The position numbers and the translations under genes are program-made. The notes under the pieces are model-generated. The model saw nothing but the letters and a program-made list of their open reading frames with translations, ran no database searches and was not told the origin of the DNA. From Escherichia coli (GTDB taxonomy: Bacteria; Pseudomonadota; Gammaproteobacteria; Enterobacterales; Enterobacteriaceae): a stretch of DNA of 64,000 nt. The stretch lies in the NCBI RefSeq assembly GCF_965641715.1, contig NZ_OZ282453.1; one strand, written 5' to 3'. This document shows positions 1-13,414 of the stretch, one piece after another. Each line of letters begins with the position of its first letter. Position 1 is the first letter of the stretch.

Positions 1-239
1 GATATTCCCGGCGGGATCGTAGTTTTGTTGCCAGAGATTCATTGCAGGTCTCCTGGAGTCCACGCACATCGTGTAATGAGTCTGTTGCTCATCTACTTGT
101 CACACGTTGTGTAAAAGTGGCACTGCCAATTGTGTTGTGTAGGGATAATGACAATGAATGGTTAACTAAATGTTATGTATTGGCAACATTGATGTGAGTT
201 TTAATTGGGGAATTGTGAACCAGAGGTCAGATAAGCGAA

Positions 240-258
240 GAATTGGTAGGGCCAATTC
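240..258. promoter_or_regulatory. Inverted repeat GAATTGG-N5-CCAATTC; candidate GntR-family (LldR/PdhR-type) operator in the promoter region of the lldP operon, whose coding sequence would lie just beyond the window start
   Basis: Palindrome read directly at 240-258. By K-12 synteny lldP follows yibL and would be transcribed away from this region on the minus strand. Confidence 0.3.
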
Positions 259-326
259 TTGTGGGGGGAGATGTCTGGTAAAGAAAAGGGCAATCCTCAT
301 CAGAGAATTGCCCTTAGATTGTTGAC

Positions 327-430
327 CCGGAGCGCCTTATCTTGCCAGATGCTGCGTGAACACCTTACCCGGCCTATAGGAATGTGCAGAATCACCCTGT
401 AGGCCTGATAAGCGTAGCGCATCAGGCAAT
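327..430. repeat. REP/BIME cluster downstream of the adhesin gene
   Basis: Canonical REP unit gtaggcctgataagcgtagcgcatcaggcaat at about 400-430 plus a degenerate REP-like unit at about 327-380; short direct repeat ttgcccttag at 308-317 and 438-447 flanks the cluster. Confidence 0.55.
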
Positions 431-468
431 TTGGCGTTTGCCCTTAGTCACACTAACTTAATGGATCA

Positions 469-3400
469 TTACCACTGAATACCGGCACCGAGTGCGGCGG
501 AGTATTCACCCTGGCTATTGGTACTACCTTGTAATTTGTAGACCCAACGACCATTGGCGCTCACCATCGACACACCTAAAGCAACTGCCGATTCACCGTT
601 GTAAGTACCGCCACCAATAGAGGCCATGCTGGCACCTGGAGTGTAAGCCTGCGGCAGACCGGTCATTGCCATTGCAGAAGCGATACCACCGCTCAACTTG
701 CTTTCAGTTTTAGACAGTTTGTTATCCATCTCAACCATCCGCTGATCGGTGTATTGCTTCGTTTCCTGCACGCTTTGCTTCAACTGCGCGTAGTTCACCG
801 CGTCGTTGTTGTTGACGCCAGCGGAGACGTTGCTGATACGAGTCGTACCGCCGTTGCCCCCACCGAGGGTGATATTGCTATAGTCAACAGAACCATCAGC
901 GTTGGTGTCGTAACGTACACCGCCCGCCTCAGAAGACTTCAACTGTGCCACGTTAACAGCATCGGTGTCGTTTTTACCTGCGGCTACGTTGGTGATACGA
1001 CGTTGATTAGTAGATGAGCCTACAGAGATCGTATTTTCTTCGGTTGCCACAGACCCTGTACCCAGTGCGACGCTGTTATCCGCGGCAGCAATGGAACCAG
1101 AACCAATCGCGACGCTATCTTTACCCTGCGCGCTGGCATCTACACCATCGGTATTGGTCTTGAAGTACTTGGTGCTACCGGTGGTGACGATATCGCCAAT
1201 ACCGTTTTCGATATTAGTAACGCGAGTATCCAGATTAGTGACCTGATTGTTCAGGTTAGTAATGCTCTGGGTATTCTGGGAAACCTGCGCATCCGTTACT
1301 TTCAACTGACCTACGTTGACCGCATCGGTATCCGCTGAACCAGCTGCGACGTTGGTGATCTGACGTTGACCGTCTTCACTACCAACAGAAAACTCACCTA
1401 CAGAGTTCTGCGGTGCGTCCATGTTGTAGGCGGTGTAGCCAGTCTGTGCACCACGGGTGGTCTGAGAACCGTTACCCATTGCAATACTGTTTGCATGGTT
1501 TGCGCGTGCGTTACTGCCGATAGCAATGCCGTTGATCGCATCAGCCAGAACCAGAGTGTTCAAACCGATACCAATACCTGCATTACCATTAACGACAGTT
1601 TTCGCACCCATTGCCAGCGAGTCTTCACCAACGGCCAGTGAGTCTTCTGCCGTTGAGTTGGCGTGAAAGTACTTGGTTGGCGTGGTTGCGACCGCACCAA
1701 TCGCATTCTGCAATTGACGAACCGTAACGGCGTCATGGGCTTCGGAACCATCAGCTACGTTGATGATTTGGCGGTATTTACCGTCATTACCAATTGACAA
1801 TGCACCTAGCAGTTCGCCGTCAGTGGTGTCATAACCAATCACCACGCCATTTTCCGTTACGCTAGTGTCACGAGAACCTTTGGCAATCACACGGCTGGAA
1901 ACGGAGCTGCTACCCAGCGCAATACCGGTATCAACGGTGCTATTGCTGTTCTGACCAATGGCTACGCTGCTGGCACCAGACGCGACAGCGTTATAACCTA
2001 CAGCTGTAGCGCCGACACCAGAGGCGCTTGCATCGTTAAAGGCTAAACCGTTGTCGTTAGTACGAACGTAGTTGATACCAGCGCCATTTTCTTCGATATA
2101 GGTTGCGTCGGTGTTACCAGCAAGCTGATTGATGATTTGGCTGTTCTGCTCAATCATCATATTCGTCGCATTCAACTGAGAACCGTTCACTGCATCGGTA
2201 CTGTCCTCACTAATACTGCCATTAGCGACATTAGTGATGATGCTGGCTTTACCGTCATGGCTGGCATTGTAGGCTCCTGCACCGCCATTGGCAGTCTCAT
2301 CCCACAGCAGGGCGTTATCATCAAGCGCATCCAGGGCGTCACCGACGTTGTTGTACTCGGCGTTCGCAATGGTGTAAGTCGGTGCGGTGATGGTGCCGTC
2401 AGCGTTAACTTCTGCATCACCACCCAGCGCATCAGCGATGTACTTGTTGGTGGTATACAGTTGTGAGCCGTTAATAGCATCGCTGCTGGTTGCGGAGACT
2501 GTACCGGCTGCAACATTAGTGATCTTGCTGGCGGAGTTATCTTTCCCGTGACCAGCACTGAATGCACCTTTACCATCATTGGCTGTTGCATCCCACAGCA
2601 GAGCATCATCGAGAGTGGTGTCGATGGCGTTCAGGGCATCACCGACGTTATCGTAATCAGCATTAGCAATGGTGTACGTCGGCGCAGTGATGGTGCCGTC
2701 TGCATTGATTTCGGCACCACCACCCAACGCATCTACGACGTACTTATTGGTGGTATAGAGTTGCGAGCCGTTCACAGCATCAGAGCTTGTGCTTGAAACA
2801 TCCCCGTTTGCGACATCAGTGATCACGCTTGCGTCACCATTAGTACCGTGTTTGGCACTAAATTTATCTACGGAAGCGTCCCAAAGCAGGGCATCGCCGA
2901 GAGACGTGCTAAATGAGGAGTTAATCGCAGCTAGTGCATCGCCGACGTTATAATAATTTGTTTCACCGATTTTGTAGGTTGGACCGGTAAACACACCGTC
3001 AGTATTCACAGAAGCATTGCCGCCGAAGTAGGTGGCGATATTGCTGCTTAAGTCATAAAGCTGGCTGCCGTTAATGGCATCGGAACTGGTTGCAGTGACT
3101 GCGCCGTCCAGGATATTGGTGATTTTGCTGGCGGCGTTGTTGCCATGAGCAGCCGTGAAGACACCATTGTCCTTATCCCATTTCAGCGCATCTTCACCAA
3201 GGTTAGTCACCGTCTCAGTCAGGTTAGAGATGTTGGTGGTGTTAGTGGCAATATTGGTGGTATTCGTCGCCACAGCATCGTTGGTGGTTTTCAGCTGGGA
3301 GCCGTTAACGGCATCAGTGCTGCCAGCCGTCAGGTCGGCATCTTTAACGTTGGTGATTTTGCTGGTGGCGTTGTTGCCGTGAGCTGCCGTGAATACACCA

Positions 3401-5358
3401 TTGTCCTTATCCCATTTCAGCGCATCTTCACCAAGGTTAGTCACCGTCTCAGTCAGGTTAGAGATGTTGGTGGTGTTAGTGGCAATATTGGAAGTGTTAT
3501 TGGCGATATTGGTGGTATTCGTCGCCACAGCATCGTTGGTGGTTTTCAGCTGAGAGCCGTTAACGGCATCGGTGCTGTCAGCCGTCAGGTCGGCATCTTT
3601 AACGTTGGTGATTTTGCTGGTGGCGTCGGTGCCATGAGCTGCCGTGAATACACCATTGTCCTTATCCCATTTCAGCGCATCTTCACCAAGGTTAGTCACC
3701 GTCTCAGTCAGGTTAGAGATGTTGGATGTGTTAGTGGCGATATTGGTGGTGTTGGCTGCCACGGCATCGTTGGTGGTTTTCAGCTGAGAGCCATTAACCG
3801 CGTCAGTGCTGCCAGCCGTCAGGTCGCCAGCGGTGACGTTGGTGATTTTGCTGGTGGCATCAGTACCGTGTGCGGCGCTGAATGCTGTACCCTTCCAGAG
3901 GAGGGCATCATCCTTAAGGTCGCCAACGGAATCCGTCAGGTTGGTGATATTGGTGGTGTTAGTGGCGATATTGGTGGTGTTGGTTGCCACATTATCATTG
4001 GTGGTTTTCAGCTGAGAGCCGTTAACGGCGTCTTTACTGGTAGCCGAAATATCGCCATCTTTTACATTGATGATTTTGTTTTCTGCTACGGTACTGGTAA
4101 TCGTTCCATCAGCATTTTTAACAATATAATTGGCGCTGAAAGCCCCTTTAGCTGAGTCCCAGTGCAGAGTTTCATTGTCAAGGTACTGGAGTGCTTCACC
4201 AACGTTATTGAAATTCTTTTTCTTCAGTTGAAAAGACATATCCATTATTGTTCCGTTAGTAGCAACATTTGCTCCGCCTCCCAGCCTGTCTGCTACTGAC
4301 CTACTAATGGCGTAAAGTTGTGAACCGTTAATGGCTTCTTTACTGTCCGTTGAGATTGTACCTGCCGCCATATTGACGATGCGACGCTGCGCTGACCCAG
4401 AGCCTACCGATACAACGTTGTCTTCACCTGCTGTAGAGTTTGCACCAATCGCGACGGAGTTATTCCCTCCTGCAGAGGATGAACTTCCTAATGCAAGACT
4501 GTTTGATCCAACCGCAGAACTTCCTGTACCGATCGCAATAGCATTTGCGGTTGATGCGCAGCTGTTCTGGCCTAATGCGATGGTGTTTGTGTTTGATGCT
4601 TGCGCATTTTGCCCCAAGGCAAGAGCACTTGCGCCAGTAGCCGCTGCTGTATATCCCAGGGCAACAGAACCTTCACCTGTTGAATCACTGTTTGCACCTA
4701 ATGCAAGACTGTTTTTGCCTCGAGCTTTCGCTTTAGTACCTACAGCCGTCGCATTTTCAGCGGCTTCGGTCTCAGCACCTATCGCAATGGAGTTTGCTGC
4801 ACTGGCAAGTGATTGCCTGCCTAATGCCAGAGAGTCTGCGCCGTTCGCCTTTGCAGATTTTCCCAGCACTAAAGAGTTGCTGGCAGTAGTAGCAGCTTGT
4901 GCTCCGACCCCCAGGACAACTGAATATTCTGCCAGTCCGTCGGCCCCACTACCGATTGCGATCGCTCGGTTTCCGGAAGCTTCTGCCACTTGTCCGATTG
5001 ATACCGATCTCTCTCCGGTTGCGTAGCTTTGGTAACCTAATGCAGTCGAACCAATACCTGTAGCCCAGGCGTTCGCGCCCACCGCAACTGCACCAGTCCC
5101 ATTGCCCACTGAGGACGCTCGTGCACCCTGGCCAATAGCTACCCAGACATCAGTGATTTCTGTTGGATCAGAGAATGTGCCACCATCAAGTGACGCACTG
5201 GCGTTTGCCCCAAACGACGAAAACATTCCACCCGCAACCAGGGCAGAAATTAACAGCTTACTGCGACCAGATTTCTTACCACGGCTCTTCGCTGTTTCGC
5301 TGGCAACGCTATAACTGCCCGTCGCCGGATTCCAGATGACTTTAAATATTTTGTTCAT
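469..5358 (-). CDS. upaG: Trimeric autotransporter adhesin, SadA/UpaG/EhaG family, 1629 aa
   Basis: N-terminal extended signal peptide [10 protein letters not shown]...; Ala/Gly/Ser-rich head repeats (NSLALG, NSVAIG); many neck motifs S(T)DAVNGSQL; Asn/Thr-rich coiled-coil stalk; C-terminal YadA-like anchor ending ...[10 protein letters not shown]. Symbol assigned by family and position only, allele not determined. Confidence 0.85.
3140..4110. repeat. Four near-identical tandem repeat units (about 234-255 bp, 78-85 aa each) inside the adhesin stalk, with 7-aa NTTNIAT-type sub-repeats
   Basis: The string cattgtccttatcccatttcagcgcatcttcaccaaggttagtcaccgtctcagtcaggttagagatgttgg recurs at about 3165, 3399 and 3654; the antisense ORF 3145..4155 shows the same peptide three times, confirming DNA-level identity. 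Confidence 0.75.
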
Positions 5359-5401
5359 TATTGATGTTCTCTATTCCTTGATATAAGCGCAGAAGCTGCA
5401 T

Positions 5402-6085
5402 TTATTTTTTGTTTTTTCGCTGCCGAGTTTCAGCAGATTGAACAGTGTCGAACTGGAGATTGGCCATATTGATGGACAACTTCAGATACTTCAGGTTATT
5501 AGGCGAAACGCCTTTTAATGTCAGATTAATGTCTTGCCATTGACCAGGCATTAATTGCAGAGTGGAATTCAGAGCGGTATTGAAAAGTAATTGTTGCCAC
5601 TTCGCCAGAGCTTTGGCATCGGTGGGCCTTTCATTGCCCCATGTAGCATGAAAACCAATATTTGATACGGGAACGCTTAATAGGTTGACCAGCGAAATAC
5701 GAATAACGCTGCCGTTTTCAACTGCATCAATAGCCAGCACCCGACCCGCCAAACCGACAGAGCCGTTATTTAAAATGAAGTAGTGTGTTTGTGCTGGGTT
5801 AAATTCTGTGAAGACAAATTCATCCTGCTTTTCTTTAACTCCCTTCACCACACTAGCAAGCGTTTTGGTACTACTTATGATGGCAGTTTGCTGTTTTTCA
5901 AATAGTTCTATCTTGCGTTTATCTTGTTCTTGTTGTTTTTCAAGTTGCTCTATTTTACTTTTTTGCAACTCTTGCTGTTTGGAAAGATCGTCGATTAGTT
6001 TTGCTTTTCCAATATAGTCACACCCTGTCAACATGCAGAGTGGCGATATCATTAACAAGCTTAATAGTATCTTTTTTAGATTCAT
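5402..6085 (-). CDS. SadB-like inner-membrane lipoprotein, 227 aa, putative adhesin surface-display helper
   Basis: Signal peptide with lipobox LTGC followed by Asp at +2 (CDY), an inner-membrane retention signal; coiled-coil-prone Gln/Glu/Lys-rich region; start has SD aaaggaa; 43 bp upstream of and co-oriented with the adhesin gene, as in Salmonella sadB-sadA. Confidence 0.7.
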   Translation of the reverse strand: MNLKKILLSLLMISPLCMLTGCDYIGKAKLIDDLSKQQELQKSKIEQLEKQQEQDKRKIELFEKQQTAIISSTKTLASVVKGVKEKQDEFVFTEFNPAQTHYFILNNGSVGLAGRVLAIDAVENGSVIRISLVNLLSVPVSNIGFHATWGNERPTDAKALAKWQQLLFNTALNSTLQLMPGQWQDINLTLKGVSPNNLKYLKLSINMANLQFDTVQSAETRQRKNKK

Positions 6086-6630
6086 AGGATGAATTCCTTT
6101 TCATAATCCTGATGCGTTGAAAATTACTTTACAATCATTTGCTTTATGAATGATCAAGCTAAATAAATTCACGGTGAAAATTTATAATATTTTTAATTGG
6201 TCGTTACTGTGAATGTGTTATTCAATGCAGAAATATTTTAGTTTGTTGCCGATTATTATATTAATCGCGCGGATTCTAATGATTGGTGTCAATCGATGTC
6301 AAATTTTTAAAGGGATAAGGTGAGAAAAAGTCAAAGGATAATATTTGTATGGTGAATGTTTTATAGTGATAAGGACAGTTTGAGTTGGAAAATATAAATA
6401 AATAGTTATGATATAAGCATGTTTATGCTGATATTTATAGCTGTAAATTATATATTAATTTTTATTGCGTAGCATATTTTCAGATTTTAACCTGCTAAAA
6501 TTATTCAGGTGAGTGGGAAGAATTGAAAAGATAATGTTAATAGATTTCGATATCTGAAATATGCTCCTGCATTTGCCAGCAGGAGCGAATAAAAATGAGG
6601 AAACTTTAGTTGTATTGACCAGTAGGGGAC
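6086..6630 (-). promoter_or_regulatory. Long AT-rich intergenic region holding the yibL terminator and the presumed promoter of the lipoprotein-adhesin operon
   Basis: 545 bp of very AT-rich sequence (for example ttataatatttttaattgg, aaatataaataaatagttatgatataagc) between yibL stop and the lipoprotein start. Confidence 0.4.
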
Positions 6631-6993
6631 TTAAAACGCGGTCTTTGAGAAGCCGGTCATCTCTTCCAGGCCCATTTCGCGGCCCAGCGCGGTCATTGGG
6701 TGAACAACCACCAGTCCGCGAACACTTTTCTTCAGCTTGCCCATATCAGCCTGCTCTTTTTTGGTAATTGCGCGCTGAAACGGCATCTTCATCAGCTTCT
6801 GTGCTTCTTTACTCAGTTTCTGGCTGTGAACTTCACGCAGGCGGGCAATTTCTGCTTCCAGCGTGGCTTTCTCTTTTTCCAGCTCGGCATATTTGTCTGC
6901 GGCTTCAACCAGCGACAGATCGGCCTGCTGGTGGCGGATGGCGTCCAGACGATCGCTGAGACGTTTGATTTCGTTTTTTTCGACTTCTTTCAT
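6631..6993 (-). CDS. yibL: YibL, ribosome-associated protein of unknown function, 120 aa
   Basis: Translation [28 protein letters not shown]... matches recalled K-12 YibL in length and position next to mtlR/yibT. Confidence 0.85.
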
Positions 6994-7277
6994 GTGATGG
7001 CTTCTGATAAAGATAAATTTATAGCCCCTAGTATGCGCGACCAGGTGCTTTGTTCACAACTGATGACATTGCAATAGTTCCGCAACGTAATCATTTATAT
7101 GCTTAAAAACTACGCAATTTATTGATTAATTAAGAAATCTATAGAAAAAAGATAATAAACAGAAGCGGATGATTATTGAGGATTCAGCACGTTTTCCTTA
7201 ATGTCATCTTTACCGGGAACCTAAACTAAAATTGGCGGCCGCGCATTCCCGGCGCGGGGTAATACGGAGATATCATC

Positions 7278-7487
7278 ATGGGCAAATTAGGTGAAAACGT
7301 TCCGCTTCTTATCGATAAAGCCGTAGATTTCATGGCATCAAGCCAGGCGTTCCGGGAGTATCTGAAAAAACTTCCTCCCCGTAACGCGATTCCGTCCGGA
7401 ATACCCGATGAAAGCGTGCCGTTATATCTACAACGTCTGGAGTATTATCGTCGGCTTTATCGGCCGAAGCAGGTAGAGGGACAGTAA
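7278..7487 (+). CDS. yibT: YibT small protein, 69 aa
   Basis: 69-aa [31 protein letters not shown]... convergent with mtlR, matching K-12 gene order. Confidence 0.8.
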
Positions 7488-7497
7488 GCGAAAGTAC

Positions 7498-8085
7498 TTA
7501 CTTTTGGAAGGCTTTTTTTAAGCTGATTCTGGAAATCAGCTCTGTCAGTGAAAGGACCATTGTTGATCGCACAGCCTGTTGATAGCGCTGAATTTGCATT
7601 GCATACAAACTGGAGTCTGCTGGTTCAAACTGTGGCGGCGGTGGCAACGCCGCCACGCAGTGCAGTTCACCAAAGGGTCCAAGGATCTCGTCGTCGGTAA
7701 AGGCGTACTCGTTGCCGTCGTGATTTAGTTCTTCACGCAATGCCATCAGCAGCTCCGCATCTTCGTATTCCTGGCGGTTAATGACGCCCAACCCGTAAAT
7801 GAGTTTTAAACGCACAGAAAGATCGCCCAGCGGACCATCGCCGTCGAGTAACGGTTCTACAGCATACTTCACCGCGTAATCGTCTTTGCGGAATACCTGA
7901 AGCACCAGAAGATTTACCGCCTCGGTCAGGAGCTCGACGGCGGTGATCAGAAAGCTTCGCACGGTTTTGCCAGCATTCAGACGCTCAAGCACACGGTTTT
8001 CAAAGGCCTGGGTTTGTTCCATTGTTGCCTGCATATCTGACAATCTGTTATTCGGGCGCAGGGTGTCCTGCGCCTGGTCCACCAT
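7498..8085 (-). CDS. mtlR: Mannitol operon repressor MtlR, 195 aa
   Basis: Length and sequence [36 protein letters not shown]...; immediately downstream of mtlD, start overlapping the mtlD stop (TAATG). Confidence 0.93.
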   Translation of the reverse strand: MVDQAQDTLRPNNRLSDMQATMEQTQAFENRVLERLNAGKTVRSFLITAVELLTEAVNLLVLQVFRKDDYAVKYAVEPLLDGDGPLGDLSVRLKLIYGLGVINRQEYEDAELLMALREELNHDGNEYAFTDDEILGPFGELHCVAALPPPPQFEPADSSLYAMQIQRYQQAVRSTMVLSLTELISRISLKKAFQK

Positions 8086-9233
8086 TATTGCATTGCTTTA
8101 TAAGCGGTTACCGCCTCAGATACAACCTCGCTGTTGGCATCAAGCCCGGAAATCTGTGCCAGCGCCGCCTGCGGACCTTTGTCAGCGATCAGTGCTGCCA
8201 GTTCCTGAGCCTGCGGATCATCTTCACTGCGGAAGTGCATTGCAGCGGCAATACCTTCAATCAGGTTTTTATGTGGCAGACCATATTCCAGCGTACCGAG
8301 CAGTGGCTTGATCAGACGGTCGCCTGCGCTCAGTTTACGCAGCGGCTGACGGCCTACGCGCTCTACATCATCTTTCAGATACGGGTTCTCAAAACGACCG
8401 AGGATTTTCTGGATGTACGCCGCATGCTTGTCAGCGTCAAAGCCGTAACGCTTGATCAGTACCGCGCCACTTTCTTCCATCGCACCTTTTACCACCGCGC
8501 GGATTTTCTCGTCGAGAATAGCGTCACGAATGGTCTGATGACCGGCCAGTTTTCCGAGGTACGCGGTTATAGCATGACCCGTGTTCAGGGTGAAGAGTTT
8601 ACGTTCGACAAATGCCATCAGGTTGTCGGTTAACTCCATGCCTGGGATGTTCGGCAGTGCGCCTTTGAACTGAGTTTTATCGACAATCCATTCGCTGAAG
8701 GTTTCTACCGTCACTTCCAGCGGATCGTTAGTTGCAGAAGCCGAAGGCGGTACGATGCGGTCAACGGCGGAATCGACAAAGCCAACGTGTTCTTCTACCC
8801 ACGCTTTGGCGTCTTCCGGCAGGGCGTTCATCACATGGCCTTTCAGTTGCGTGGTGCCGCGGACCATGTTTTCACAAGCGATGATGTTCAGCGGAGATTC
8901 ATTACCTTGTTCTTTACGTTTCACCAGCCCTTTGGCGATAGCCGGAGCAATACGTTCCAGCACTACCGGGCCAACGGCGGTAGTGACTAAATCAACCTGA
9001 GCAATGAGATCAACGACATCATCACCAATGCTGCTGACAGCATTGACGCCAGAAACGGTATCTACCTGCTCGGTTTCACCGACCACATGAACCTGATAGC
9101 TATGACGGGCATTCAGGGCATCAAGTACCACCTGATTGACATCGGCAAACGTCAGTTGTATACCCGCGTCTGCCAGCAGTTTACCGATAAAGCCACGACC
9201 GATATTACCTGCGCCAAAATGTAATGCTTTCAT
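8085..9233 (-). CDS. mtlD: Mannitol-1-phosphate 5-dehydrogenase, 382 aa
   Basis: ORF track gives a 485-aa frame; true start taken at [17 protein letters not shown] (Rossmann motif), ATG confirmed at 9233, giving the K-12 length. Confidence 0.93.
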
Positions 9234-9244
9234 AGTATTAACCT

Positions 9245-9460
9245 TCATCAATGTTTTTACCCGAGAGGGCTGGGGTGAGGCTTTTCCCTCACCCAAACCC
9301 TCTCCGTGAGGAGAGGGGCAGCGCCGGAGGCGGCGTAAACGCCTTATCCGGCCTACAAGAACGTGCAAATTCAACAAATTGTGATGCATCCTGTAGGCCT
9401 GATAAGCGAAGCGCATCAGGCAATCAGCCCCACCGTCTCCATGTGGAGAGGGTGGGATTG
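9245..9460. repeat. REP/BIME cluster in the mtlA-mtlD intergenic region, with flanking CTCTCC...GGAGAGGG-type palindromes
   Basis: REP units at about 9322-9357 and 9390-9424; flanking imperfect palindromes ccctctccgtgaggagagggg (about 9293-9313) and cgtctccatgtggagagggtg (about 9433-9453). Confidence 0.65.
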
Positions 9461-9462
9461 GG

Positions 9463-11376
9463 TTACTTACGACCTGCCAGCAGTTCCAGCACTTCATCCA
9501 CACTGGTGGTGTGTGCCAGACGCTCGATGACAGACTCATCATCCAGTGCGTTGGTCAGGCTGGTGATAACCTGAATGTGCTCGTTGTTACGGGCTGCAAT
9601 ACCAATCACCAGACGGGCAATGTCATCTTCTTCTTCGCCGAAGCGCACGCCTTCCGGGTACTGGCAGAACACGACGCCAGTTTTCAGTACGCGATCTTTC
9701 GCTTCAACCGTACCGTGCGGCACTGCGATAGACTCACCCAGATAAGTCGGGGTCAGTTTTTCACGATCCAACATCGCCTGAACGTACTCCGGCTCAACGT
9801 AACCACCTTTCACCAGCTGCTCGCCAGCAAAACGAATCGCTTCTTCTTTGGTGGCAGCTTTGCGACCGAGGAAGATGTTCTCCGCGCCCAGTTTGAACAG
9901 GTTAGCACTGGAATCGTCAAAGCTGTCTTTCAGACTGTCTTTCACTTTCACTTCGTTTTCAGTATGGCGCTGGGCAGCAACCAGACGTTCGGTCAGGCTG
10001 GTGTACAGGCCGCTGTCGAGGAAGTTGGTCAGCGAAATATGCTGTGCCTGCGGAACCTGGCGCATAGCGCGTTCGGTCAGGTCACGGTGAGTGATGACGA
10101 GGTCCACATCTGGCGGCAGGTTGTTGATCGCGCTGTTAGTGACCGAAATCTGCGACAGACCTGCATCCTGAATTTTCTTACGCAGCACGCCTGCGCCCAT
10201 CGCACTTGAACCCATACCGGCGTCACAGGCAACGATGATTTTACGTACGTGGCTCAGGTCGTTAGTCACATCGCCCGCAGACAGCGGAGATGCACCTTTA
10301 GACTCAGCTTTCATGTCCTGCATACGACGAGTTGCTGCTTCAATATCATCTTCTTCTTTCACTTTGCTGGTTTTCAGCAAAATAGCAGAGACAACAAAGG
10401 AGACAGCCATCGCCGCACACACACCCGCGATGTTAGCGAAATAAGCACCTTTTGGTGTCATCGCCAGTACAGCAAGGATAGAACCCGGAGATGCCGGAGA
10501 AACCAGACCACCGCCCAGGATAGTCAGCGTGAACACGCCAGTCATACCGCCGAGGATAACGGCCAGGATCAGACGCGGATTCATCAACACATACGGGAAG
10601 TAAATTTCGTGGATACCACCCAGGAAGTGGATAATTGCCGCACCGCCCGCAGACTGTTTAGCGCTACCACGACCAAAGAACATGTACGCCAGCAGCACGC
10701 CCATACCCGGACCTGGGTTAGCTTCAATCAGGAAGAATATGGATTTACCCAGTTCATGGGACTGCTGAATACCCAGCGGCGAGAAGATACCGTGGTTAAT
10801 GGCGTTGTTGAGGAACAGGATTTTCGCCGGTTCAACAAAGATAGACGCCAGCGGCAGCATGTCATGGACAACCATGAAGTTAACGCCCGCAGCCAGCATT
10901 TTGGACAGGGCTTCAACAATCGGGCCAATGCCGAGAAATGCCAGAATGGCGAGGATCATCCCGATGATGCCTGCGGAGAAGTTATTCACCAGCATCTCAA
11001 AACCGGATTTGATCTTACCGTCTACCCAGCGGTCGAAGTGCTTAATGCACCAGCCGCCCAGCGGACCTGCAATCATAGAACCGAGGAACATCGGCATGTC
11101 TGCGCCGACGATAACGCCCATGGTGGTGATGGCACCGACTACGCCGCCACGTTCGCCGCCTACCAGCTTACCACCGGTATAACCGATCAGCAGCGGCAGG
11201 AGATAAGTGATCATCGGCCCGACCAGCTTCGCCAGCGTCTCGTTCGGTAACCACCCTGTTGGAATAAATAACGCGGTGATGATACCCCACGCGATAAACG
11301 CGCCGATATTTGGCATCACCATGTTGCTGAGGAAACGACCAAAGCTTTGCACTTTGATCTTAATATCGGATGACAT
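9463..11376 (-). CDS. mtlA: Mannitol-specific PTS enzyme IICBA, 637 aa
   Basis: Full-length match in size and sequence to MtlA ([25 protein letters not shown]...). Confidence 0.95.
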
Positions 11377-11912
11377 AAAAACACCCCTTCTTATGTTTGC
11401 TGTCGCGCAGGCTGGAAGCCCGAGGTTTTTTGTTAATGTGGCGGCAGAGGTAGCCGGACCTTGTAGATACTGCGAAATCTGGCACTGAATCGGTTAACTG
11501 TCCAGTCGACGGCCTTTTGTGTGATATCAATCACATAAATATAGGGGGTAGAGAGGTAATTGACGTGACGTTCATCACAAAACGCTTGTGTAAAAAAGCA
11601 ACAAGGCGGCGATTTTCGCTAAAAATGGCATTTAAATGTGAGTAGTGTCACATTTTTGTTTTGATGGTTTGTTGAATCTTTGTGATCTGAATCACAAGAT
11701 ATTTTCTTACGGCGTTCACCTGATGTGATCTACAGCATGTTATGCCTTCGTCATACAATCGTTATGTAACTAAGCAACTCATCACCTCTAAAAATTATTC
11801 TTTGGTGTTATGGCGAGAATCGCGAACCCGGATTATTGTCAAAATATCAGCCTGACTCCCTTCTGGCTGCCAGCCAAAAAACAACACTGATAAACGTGAA
11901 TCCGAGGCAAAT
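11377..11912. promoter_or_regulatory. mtl operon regulatory region, divergent from yibI, with multiple CRP sites
   Basis: Perfect CRP consensus TGTGA-N6-TCACA at 11520-11535 (tgtgatatcaatcaca) and 11681-11696 (tgtgatctgaatcaca), plus a half-site-rich element at 11565-11579; the mtl promoter is known to carry several CRP sites. Confidence 0.7.
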
Positions 11913-12275
11913 ATGTTTCTAAACTATTTCGCGTTGGGAGTGCTGATCTTCGTCTTTCTGGTGATTTTTTATGGAATCATCGCGATACATGACATCCCTT
12001 ATTTGATTGCCAAAAAGCGCAACCATCCCCATGCCGACGCTATTCATACGGCGGGCTGGGTGAGCCTGTTTACTCTGCATGTTATCTGGCCGTTTCTGTG
12101 GATCTGGGCGACGCTCTATCAACCGGAGCGCGGCTGGGGCATGCAGTCACATGTTGCGTCGCAGGAGAAAGTGACTGACCCGGAAATCGCCGCACTTTCT
12201 GACCGAATTTCCCGGCTGGAGCACCAACTCGCCGCCGAGAAAAAGACTGACTATTCCACGTTCCCGGAGATCTAA
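11913..12275 (+). CDS. yibI: DUF3302-type small membrane protein YibI, 120 aa
   Basis: N-terminal transmembrane helix and conserved [20 protein letters not shown] motif; paralogue of yiaW at 21011. Confidence 0.85.
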
Positions 12276-12277
12276 TT

Positions 12278-13414
12278 ATGGATCTATTGATTGTTTTAAC
12301 TTACGTGGCGCTGGCGTGGGCGGTCTTTAAAATCTTTCGTATTCCGGTGAATCAATGGACGCTGGCGACGGCGGCGCTGGGAGGCGTGTTTCTGGTGAGT
12401 GGTTTGATTTTGTTGATGAACTACAACCACCCTTACACTTTTACCGCGCAAAAGGCTGTGATAGCGATCCCCATCACGCCACAGGTGACGGGAATTGTTA
12501 CTGAAGTCACTGACAAGAATAATCAGCTTATTCAAAAGGGCGAGGTGCTTTTTAAGCTCGACCCGGTTCGTTACCAGGCGCGAGTTGACAGACTTCAGGC
12601 TGACCTGATGACGGCGACGCATAATATAAAGACGCTGCGCGCGCAGCTCACTGAAGCGCAGGCCAACACCACCCAGGTTTCAGCGGAGCGCGACCGTCTG
12701 TTTAAAAATTATCAACGTTATCTGAAAGGCAGCCAGGCGGCGGTGAATCCGTTCTCGGAACGTGACATCGACGATGCGCGGCAAAATTTCCTCGCGCAGG
12801 ATGCGCTGGTGAAAGGCTCGGTGGCGGAGCAGGCGCAGATCCAGAGCCAGCTCGACAGTATGGTCAACGGCGAGCAATCGCAGATTGTGAGCTTAAGAGC
12901 GCAACTTACTGAAGCAAAATATAATCTTGAGCAGACTGTCATTCGCGCACCAAGCAATGGCTACGTCACTCAGGTACTGATCCGCCCAGGCACATACGCA
13001 GCTGCCTTGCCGTTGCGTCCGGTGATGGTTTTCATCCCCGAGCAAAAACGGCAAATTGTCGCCCAATTTCGGCAAAACTCGCTGTTACGTCTGAAACCTG
13101 GTGATGATGCGGAAGTGGTGTTTAACGCGCTACCTGGGCAGGTGTTCCACGGCAAACTGACCAGTATTTTACCTGTCGTGCCAGGCGGTTCTTATCAGGC
13201 GCAGGGGGTATTGCAATCATTAACGGTCGTGCCCGGCACGGACGGTGTGCTGGGAACCATTGAACTGGACCCTAACGATGATATCGATGCCTTACCCGAC
13301 GGCATTTACGCCCAGGTGGCAGTTTACTCCGACCATTTCAGCCATGTTTCGGTGATGCGGAAAGTGCTGCTAAGAATGACCAGCTGGATGCATTATCTTT
13401 ATTTGGATCATTGA
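12278..13414 (+). CDS. yibH: HlyD-family membrane-fusion-like protein YibH, 378 aa
   Basis: N-terminal transmembrane helix, long coiled-coil, C-terminal beta domain; 2 bp downstream of yibI; paralogue of yiaV. Confidence 0.85.

Follow-up and report, generated by a model that had tools for sequence, protein, structure and literature searches.

The window analyzed here is a 64,000-nucleotide stretch of Escherichia coli DNA (contig NZ_OZ282453.1), and one end of it carries two neighboring genes on the minus strand (Table 1). In the open reading frame list of the window, both genes start with ATG; they encode a 227-aa lipoprotein (sadB) and a 1,629-aa adhesin. The layout proposed by a first-pass annotation, a lipoprotein gene followed after 43 bp by the adhesin gene, was exact to the base, and both flanks, yibL and lldP, were located where it had placed them. 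The gene order is mtlD-mtlR-yibT-yibL-sadB-TAA-lldP, where TAA is the trimeric autotransporter adhesin gene. The synteny mtlADR-yibT-yibL-sadB-TAA-lldPRD was kept in four other strains, with a 43-bp spacer in each. In the closest genome, strain A30, both genes are annotated at identical coordinates. Because of this annotation and the strong homologues described below, sadB and the adhesin gene are regarded as real genes rather than chance reading frames.

Table 1. Features of the sadB-adhesin region (window coordinates)
Feature	Position	Strand	Basis or remark
yibL	6631..6993	-	Flank on the sadB side
Hairpin GCTCCTGC-N8-GCAGGAGC	6563..6586	-	Just 3' of yibL; read from sequence
AT-rich upstream and 5' untranslated region	6086..6630	-	yibL stop to sadB start; GC 0.28-0.36
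Candidate sigma-70 promoter	6273..6302	-	TTGACA, 18-nt spacer, TAGAAT; ~190 nt before sadB start
sadB orthologue, 227-aa inner-membrane lipoprotein (predicted)	5402..6085	-	PDB 4C47 match
sadB signal peptide and lipobox	6020-6085	-	Cys22 codon 6020-6022; Asp23 codon 6017-6019
sadB coiled coil	~5822-6004	-	Ungapped alignment to SadB
sadB C-terminal beta domain	~5405-5821	-	Ungapped alignment to SadB
sadB-adhesin spacer, 43 bp	5359..5401	-	AAGGAA/GAGA Shine-Dalgarno-like bases
Trimeric autotransporter adhesin gene, sadA/upaG/ehaG positional orthologue	469..5358	-	Homology, domains
ESPR (extended signal peptide region), residues 1-48	5215..5358	-	Pfam PF13018, E=1.5e-15
N-terminal YadA-like head, residues ~86-322	4393..5103	-	YadA_head matches; most divergent part
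Tandem stalk repeats, residues ~428-745	3116..4078	-	TRF: period 228-255 nt, ~4 copies
YadA-like membrane anchor, residues 1569-1629	472..654	-	Pfam PF03895, E=2e-19
Pair of REP-like palindromic units 3' of the adhesin gene	345..433	.	Sequence gcctgatgcgctacgcttatcaggcctac
Intrinsic-terminator-like hairpin	286..315	-	13-bp stem and T-run; terminator scan, inverted-repeat analysis
lldP, first 14 codons (MNLWQQNYDPAGNI)	42..1	-	Flank on the adhesin side

The N-terminus of the lipoprotein, MNLKKILLSLLMISPLCMLTGCDY, reads directly as the lipobox L19-T20-G21-C22 with Asp23 at position +2, as had been proposed. G21, C22, and D23 were invariant, and the motif GCDYI was unchanged, across five E. coli SadB alleles. 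The resemblance to SadB was borne out as orthology: Salmonella SadB (PDB 4C47) matched over the full mature length, with residues 23-227 pairing without gaps with chain residues 3-207 (E=6.4e-72). Identity was 52.7% across the mature protein, lower in the coiled coil (44%) than in the beta domain (57%). The suspected coiled coil corresponds to a Q/E/K-rich heptad region at residues ~28-88 that lies ungapped on the SadB coiled coil, and heptad-like hydrophobic spacing was present in residues 28-90. The ratio of nonsynonymous to synonymous divergence (dN/dS) between sadB alleles was 0.11-0.15 with dS near saturation, and therefore purifying selection maintains the gene.

The Pfam profile DUF3251 (PF11622) matched residues 112-202 without significance (E=0.39, 11.1 bits), and an NCBIfam profile search of the lipoprotein matched no model. 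Thus, it is the direct SadB match, not the profile libraries, that supports the family assignment. RefSeq labels the same gene either "SadB/YajI family lipoprotein" or "DUF3251 domain-containing protein." YajI, a SadB paralogue assigned to DUF3251, is a small enterobacterial lipoprotein with the common beta domain fold family, but unlike the window sadB it has no linkage to an autotransporter (PMC3953254). Since no YajI structure was present among the PDB matches of the window lipoprotein at E<=0.01, and since DUF3251 reached only the E value given above, the protein is of the SadB type and not of the YajI type.

For Salmonella SadB, inner-membrane localization by Asp at +2 and a trimeric structure have been reported (PMC3953254). 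Judging from its own Asp at +2 and from published work in Salmonella and E. coli, the window SadB would likewise be retained in the inner membrane. It is probably a homotrimer, as in the published work, and the gap-free alignment supports the same two-part layout. The published Salmonella and E. coli work also suggests that it may act as a helper in display of the adhesin.

The second gene had been called a YadA-like trimeric autotransporter, and this was corroborated by its domains and by homology to SadA, UpaG, and EhaG. The protein carries the full type Vc layout of ESPR, YadA head, neck/stalk units, and YadA anchor. There were 11 YadA_head matches (8 at E<=0.001 and 3 weaker) and 14 YadA_stalk matches at E<=0.001; the stalk matches inside the tandem repeat block began at residues 428, 504, 582, and 667. 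The anchor matched those of Hia and YadA among PDB structures (3EMO and 2GR7) and was 100% identical across all five alleles. By family membership, the adhesin is expected to form a homotrimer with a 12-strand barrel, four strands being supplied by each anchor. It was 99% identical to a 1,629-aa protein of strain A30, for which RefSeq gives only the name "YadA-like family protein."

Upstream of sadB, the candidate promoter at 6302..6273 was the top promoter-like match in positions 1..7100, scoring 11/12. It sits in the sole well-conserved island of a strongly diverged upstream region (columns ~350-395 of the five-allele alignment). GC content was 0.28-0.36 in windows of 6001-6750 versus ~0.51 in the adhesin gene. 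Deletion of hns is listed as derepressing upaG in a table of PMC12525524, which cites Totsika 2012, and the AT-rich upstream region is compatible with this reported repression. From the published work, H-NS control of the window operon is presumed. The hairpin just 3' of yibL was kept in four of the five alleles and partly in O157; it is possibly a yibL terminator dividing yibL from the operon, and it was missed by the terminator scan because of its weak T-run.

The spacer was 43 bp in all five alleles, with a mean column identity of 97%. Its AAGGAA lies 15 nt before the adhesin ATG, which is a long Shine-Dalgarno spacing. On the operon strand (-), scanning the spacer turned up no terminator-like site, and no promoter-like site lies nearby; the nearest minus-strand terminator-like site, at 5248..5226, falls within the adhesin signal-peptide codons. 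Downstream of the adhesin gene, the REP-like region contains an inverted repeat (364-380 / 396-412), and the hairpin beyond it is likely the end of the operon transcript. From this arrangement, sadB and the adhesin gene are predicted to be cotranscribed. Cotranscription of sadBA is put forward in the source paper as a hypothesis from the short gap (PMC3953254).

As reported previously, the operon, its mtl/lld position, and its loss in K-12 are described by Grin et al. (2014, J Biol Chem; PMC3953254), and the region is this already-described enterobacterial sadB-adhesin two-gene unit of the SadA/UpaG/EhaG family. The proposed parallel with Salmonella sadB-sadA (STM3690-STM3691) held for gene order, mtl/lld position, and spacer, which is 44 bp in Salmonella versus 43 bp here (PMC3953254). 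Salmonella SadB likewise has a lipobox with Asp at +2, a coiled coil, and a beta domain, and it aligns end to end without gaps. Like the window adhesin, SadA has an ESPR, a head, repeated neck/stalk units, and an anchor, but it differs in length, in the head, and in the stalk repeat set. Its crystal fragments match the C-terminal ~400 residues of the window adhesin, with E values down to 6e-138 (2YO0, residues 1212-1477); the others gave 1e-90 (2YO3), 2e-34 (2YNZ), and 1.5e-20 (2YO2). The helper effect of SadB has been reported for the Salmonella SadB/SadA pair, and the window SadB is only 53% identical to that SadB.

As a whole, the region very probably represents the enterobacterial sadBA operon in its E. 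coli form. The observations made here comprise intact genes, their orthology and domain layout, synteny, a conserved spacer and promoter-like island, and purifying selection, and no sequence evidence against the sadBA-operon reading was found. In the mechanism proposed here, a promoter in the AT-rich region 3' of yibL (candidate 6302..6273) would yield a single transcript of sadB, spacer, and adhesin gene that ends at 315..286. SadB would be exported, lipidated at Cys22, and retained by its Asp at +2 as an inner-membrane protein. It would trimerize via its N-terminal coiled coil, and its three beta domains would face the periplasm. The adhesin would be exported by Sec using its ESPR-type signal peptide, and SadB may hold or align the three unfolded chains. 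The C-terminal anchors would then form the 12-strand barrel via BAM, and the ~1,500-residue passenger would emerge in register as a head-stalk fiber that may mediate adhesion, autoaggregation, and biofilm formation. In standard culture, H-NS probably silences expression.

Other explanations were also weighed. The operon could be a cryptic, effectively silent remnant, permanently repressed or decaying and without current function. The AT-rich promoter region together with the upaG silencing by H-NS listed in PMC12525524 would fit such a state, PMC3953254 states that the conditions under which sadBA is natively expressed are not known, and loss of the locus in a large share of E. coli has come at no obvious cost. 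However, the reading frames of 227 and 1,629 codons are intact, and sadB is under purifying selection (dN/dS ~0.1 at near-saturated dS). In addition, conservation across alleles is 92-100% in the anchor and C-terminal third of the adhesin (77-100% in 60-residue windows), and the promoter-like island is conserved. We therefore consider a silent remnant unlikely.

A separate question is whether the two products, although co-inherited, work independently, with the lipoprotein filling another periplasmic role, as YajI may, and Sec and BAM alone exporting the adhesin. E. coli K-12 derivatives without sadB have been used to express and assemble UpaG, SadB is nowhere mentioned in that study of UpaG biogenesis (PMC5670179), and the paralogue YajI has no linked autotransporter (PMC3953254). 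Against this, loss of the adhesin is always accompanied by loss of the lipoprotein gene (PMC3953254 and the genome counts below), the spacer is fixed in length and 97% conserved though both coding regions diverge, and co-expression of Salmonella SadB, under artificial promoters, increased the surface display and protease resistance of SadA (PMC3953254). Functional independence thus appears quite improbable.

The distribution of the sadBA operon bears on its origin. Among 5,426 complete E. coli genomes, sadB was present in 4,149 (76%), always on the chromosome and at a median of one place per genome. The proposed absence of any gene between yibL and lldP in K-12 was confirmed in MG1655, where the 371 bp between them hold no annotated gene and both sadB and the adhesin gene are missing. 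At the K-12 junction, a 12-nt filler replaces window positions 402-6630, and homology resumes at 401, so that the deletion ends within the distal REP-like unit; the hairpin at 286..315 is still present in K-12, there directly 3' of yibL. Exactly this junction occurred in 1,261 of the genomes, which together with the sadB carriers account for 5,410 of the 5,426. Because so many genomes share the exact junction, one deletion of ~6.2 kb explains nearly all absences. The locus is ancestral, the same arrangement being found in Salmonella and Shigella (PMC3953254), and K-12-like genomes have lost it by deletion. The first-pass wording of genes "inserted" between yibL and lldP thus had the direction wrong, and a horizontally acquired accessory island is very unlikely: absence from K-12, low GC (0.28-0.44) in sadB and the region upstream, and very large allele differences between strains speak for it, but the genome counts, the shared arrangement in Salmonella and Shigella, an adhesin-gene GC typical of E. 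coli, and the lack of any integrase, tRNA, IS element, or direct repeats beside the segment speak against it.

Within the ancestral sadBA operon, the adhesin allele is unusual. Lengths in the family are 1,447, 1,588, 1,629, and 1,778 aa. The remark that the adhesin differs in length from UpaG and EhaG, within a variable-length family, agrees with RefSeq, which gives UpaG as 5,337 nt (1,778 aa) in EcN and EhaG as 4,767 nt (1,588 aa) in an O157:H7 strain. EhaG is a positional orthologue with the same flanks and a 43-bp spacer, and it is 73% identical overall. It is mostly 92-100% identical at residues ~600-840 and ~960-1080 and 77-100% identical in the C-terminal third, but only 32-55% identical to residues 61-300 in the head; it carries 29 additional residues following residue 90, and residues 472-533 of the window adhesin have no counterpart in it. 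The SadB beside EhaG shows only 68% protein and ~74% DNA identity to the window sadB, with saturated synonymous divergence. UpaG (CFT073/Nissle type), also a positional orthologue with a 43-bp spacer, is 65% identical by BLASTP, and the SadB beside it is 81% identical to the window SadB. Its identity is 72-83% at residues ~420-540 and 92-100% at residues 1200-1629 but 30-58% in the head and 52-80% in the mid-stalk, and it is longer by 149 residues, with added head repeats and one added 64-residue stalk block. A strict assignment to the named alleles UpaG or EhaG was rejected, given this overall and head identity.

Across UpaG, EhaG, and the ST131 allele, the window head is only 30-58% identical, whereas the C-terminal third (residues 1200-1629) is 77-100% identical in 60-residue windows. 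The head-coding segment was found at full length in just 6 of the 5,426 complete genomes, and the head is a rare variant. Tandem stalk repeats are the main source of length variation; blocks of this region are missing in EhaG and the ST131 allele, and UpaG has additional ones. As judged by sliding identity and indel blocks, the allele is a recombinational mosaic: it joins the rare head to a short part resembling UpaG (residues ~420-540), a mid-stalk resembling EhaG (~600-1080), and the C-terminal third that all alleles conserve. It is this allele that sets the window apart from the described operon. The locus itself is already known and, except for a rare adhesin tip in an uncommon mosaic version, ordinary.

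A six-frame ORF list returned the two adjacent minus-strand ORFs described in the first-pass annotation, both with ATG starts and separated by 43 bp. The lipoprotein encoded by the upstream gene begins with MNLKKILLSLLMISPLCMLTGCDY. As the annotation had it, the signal peptide ends in the lipobox LTGC and Asp lies directly after the lipidated Cys. In the translation, a Q/E/K-rich heptad segment follows this Cys-Asp. The proposed similarity to SadB was borne out when all PDB chains were searched, the sole match being 4C47 (E=6.4e-72), titled "inner membrane lipoprotein," which is the structure of Salmonella SadB; the structure of the paralogue YajI was absent from the matches. Residues 23-227 aligned without gaps to residues 3-207 of the 4C47 chain. 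The window lipoprotein differs from Salmonella SadB at nearly half of its positions (52.7% identity), the beta domain (57%) being closer than the coiled-coil part (44%). Pfam returned only a nonsignificant match to DUF3251 (E=0.39) and no NCBIfam model matched the lipoprotein; thus, the assignment was made by the direct SadB match. In RefSeq, orthologous genes are labeled "SadB/YajI family lipoprotein" or "DUF3251 domain-containing protein." The reading of the pair as sadB and its adhesin gene was upheld as a whole, and only the direction of the presence/absence event was corrected.

Features of the sadB-adhesin locus in the window (nucleotide positions) and of the encoded adhesin (residues)
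Feature	Position	Strand	Description
yibL	6631..6993	-	sadB-side flank
Hairpin	6586..6563	-	just after yibL
Candidate promoter	6302..6273	-	TTGACA-18-TAGAAT, best promoter-like match in 1..7100
sadB	5402..6085	-	227 aa, ATG start
Adhesin gene	469..5358	-	1629 aa, ATG start
DNA tandem repeats	3116-4078		period 228-255 nt, ~4 copies of a 76-85-residue stalk unit
Two REP-like units			downstream of the adhesin gene, before the hairpin 315..286
Hairpin	315..286	-	13-bp stem and T-run, downstream of the REP-like units
lldP, first 14 codons	42..1	-	adhesin-side flank
ESPR signal peptide	residues 1-48		Pfam, E=1.5e-15
YadA_head repeat run	residues 86-322		Pfam
YadA_stalk (neck)			Pfam, fourteen matches dispersed over the adhesin
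Further head-like inserts	residues 1112-1138, 1272-1298, 1410-1449		Pfam
YadA_anchor	residues 1569-1629		Pfam, E=2e-19

The adhesin matched the crystallized SadA fragments, most strongly 2YO0 (E=6e-138 over residues 1212-1477), followed by 2YO3 (1e-90), 2YNZ (2e-34), and 2YO2 (1.5e-20). Subcutoff NCBIfam matches to EmaA, Ata, Vomp, BimA, and YadA were attributed to repeat content and not to family membership. A 336-aa plus-strand ORF (3145..4155) was judged spurious, being antisense within the stalk repeats, repetitive in translation, and unannotated in A30, a baboon isolate; the composition of the stalk repeats almost certainly gave rise to it. In the neighborhood, the mechanical ORF of mtlD (8085-9542, minus strand; 485 aa) extends upstream through the REP-like mtlA-mtlD spacer. 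Since mtlD of A30 is annotated at 1149 nt, the true start is internal to this ORF.

The layout of the locus fits a single transcription unit. The spacer, 97% conserved, measured exactly 43 bp in each of the five alleles compared (window, A30, EcN, O157, and ST131), and a scan flagged no terminator-like site within it on the operon strand. Upstream of sadB, the candidate promoter falls inside the sole well-conserved island of a region with 28-36% GC in which the alleles otherwise differ strongly. Transcription from yibL may be kept out of the operon by the hairpin that follows this gene. A 4-bp GCAG/CTGC stem in the spacer RNA was dropped as a candidate structure, as it was present in four alleles and missing from O157. 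An Rfam scan of 1-7300 gave only a spurious microRNA match and a subthreshold match to the Salmonella sRNA candidate STnc380 at 216-324 (plus strand; 37.1 bits against a gathering score of 60, E=1.6e-4 to 7e-6). The latter lies in the lldP promoter region, antisense to the direction of lldP, and the same region occurs in K-12. It covers the terminator hairpin at 286-315 and the palindrome AATTGGCCCTACCAATT, which resembles an LldR operator of the lldPRD promoter.

As reported previously, the place of sadA, flanked by the mtl and lld operons, is conserved in Escherichia, Salmonella, and Shigella; in Salmonella, sadB immediately precedes sadA at a distance of 44 bp, from which an operon was hypothesized (Grin et al. 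2014, PMC3953254). When SadB was coexpressed, more SadA was displayed on the surface and it resisted protease better (PMC3953254), and a 2026 preprint confines SadB homologues to the Enterobacterales. In reviews, UpaG, EhaG, and SadA are treated as positional orthologues with roles in binding to extracellular-matrix proteins, autoaggregation, and biofilm formation. According to a review that cites earlier work (PMC12525524), hns deletion derepresses upaG; the operon in the window may likewise be silenced by H-NS. The best-supported account of the pair is that of Grin et al., in which SadB aids export of the adhesin. A SadB trimer, lipidated at Cys22, would stay in the inner membrane and engage three unfolded adhesin chains following Sec export. 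With its help the chains would trimerize in register, and insertion of the 12-strand anchor by BAM would then lead to export of a correctly folded fiber. The present analysis itself establishes the orthology, the motifs, the linkage, and the selective constraint; the other elements of this account are inferred.

The sadB alleles were far more diverged than the adjacent yibL. Compared with the window gene, protein identity was 87% for ST131 (dS 0.52, dN/dS 0.15), 81% for EcN (dS 0.83, dN/dS 0.13), and 68% for O157 (dS 2.0, dN/dS 0.11), against a dS of 0.14-0.29 and a dN/dS of at most 0.03 for yibL, which was 98% conserved. The divergence sets in right behind the yibL stop codon, and deeply diverged allelic classes within one species run through sadB with its upstream DNA (5402-6630) and through the 5' two-thirds of the adhesin gene (469-5358). 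By DNA identity to the window allele, 46 genomes fell at 99% or above, 1,792 at 80-90%, and 2,270 at 60-80%. Such old alleles under purifying selection point to a functional lipoprotein and speak against decay as well as against rapid positive selection. A cryptic remnant is an improbable description of the operon. That sadB and the adhesin gene are linked yet functionally independent is quite improbable.

The first-pass annotation took the genes as an insertion between yibL and lldP, which reverses the direction of the event: presence of the locus is ancestral, and K-12-like genomes have lost it. Queried by blastn, sadB was carried by 4,149 of the 5,426 complete E. coli genomes, always on the chromosome and at a median of one place per genome. 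K-12 lacks both genes, as annotated, and their removal by a deletion of ~5 kb has been published (PMC3953254). In the comparison here, window positions 402-6630 (6,229 bp) are replaced by 12 nt: gaacacagtatc (2029-2040 of the K-12 locus) adjoins the yibL stop codon, and the sequence from window position 401 downstream comes next. The deletion thus ends directly after the yibL stop codon on one side and inside a REP-like element on the other, and the yibL-lldP distances (6,588 bp in the window and 371 bp in K-12) agree with this exchange. A 116-nt probe across the K-12 junction matched essentially at full length in 1,261 genomes. Since the two sets add up to 5,410 of 5,426, one widespread deletion allele explains nearly all absences. 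A horizontally acquired island is highly improbable and was rejected, given the prevalence of sadB, a deletion junction common to the genomes that lack it, the synteny published for Salmonella (PMC3953254), the absence of mobility genes around the locus, and an adhesin gene GC content normal for E. coli. All three alternatives are weaker than the account of Grin et al.

The adhesin gene, itself known, is present in a rare and mosaic allele that is strictly neither UpaG nor EhaG. Its product was 99% identical to the 1629-aa protein of A30, 73% to EhaG, and 65% to UpaG. The expected variability in length was confirmed (1,629 aa here against 1,588 for EhaG, 1,778 for UpaG, and 1,447 for the ST131 allele), and the differences consist of head-repeat and stalk-repeat blocks. 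Sliding identity gave 82% to the other alleles in the signal peptide and only 30-58% to all three in the head (residues 61-300). UpaG was nearest at residues ~420-540, and identity to EhaG was mostly 92-100% at residues ~600-1080, falling to 78-82% at 841-960. Over the last ~430 residues, identity was 77-100% throughout the alleles, and it was 100% in the anchor. The head-coding segment was full-length in only 6 of the 5,426 genomes, including the baboon isolates A30 and PapRG-06-5, both of which matched the whole locus. In a large protein database, heads at 99% identity came only from partial entries labeled E. coli and Shigella dysenteriae, and the next-best matches were 66-71% identical. 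With its rare head, the adhesin may differ from UpaG and EhaG in receptor or host specificity.

The core genes of the flank (6600-12600) reached at most 99.4% identity to any of the complete genomes, the closest being A30 and the bovine XJ34 and XJ6-3, and the best match to the 7.1-kb locus was at most 98.5%. Thus, the source strain is not closely represented among these genomes.

The operon, its position, the SadB structure and helper role, the fiber architecture, and the absence from K-12 were all known, and RefSeq carries near-identical (99%) proteins at the same position. Here, allele rarity and mosaicism, one shared deletion, and ancient sadB lineages, as seen across 5,426 genomes, are mildly new. 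Between the yibL stop codon and about adhesin residue 1100, several ancient allelic lineages may be kept by balancing or frequency-dependent selection, in which each SadB coiled coil would fit its own adhesin; co-variation of the two was viewed in four comparison alleles with a mosaic adhesin. The reading that has both parts, a distinct specificity of the head and lineages kept by selection, is rather doubtful. A mosaic with a rare head is relevant to virulence-gene typing by name and to UpaG/EhaG-based vaccine design. In E. coli, the very old yet constrained sadB alleles back a real, conserved function of the lipoprotein.
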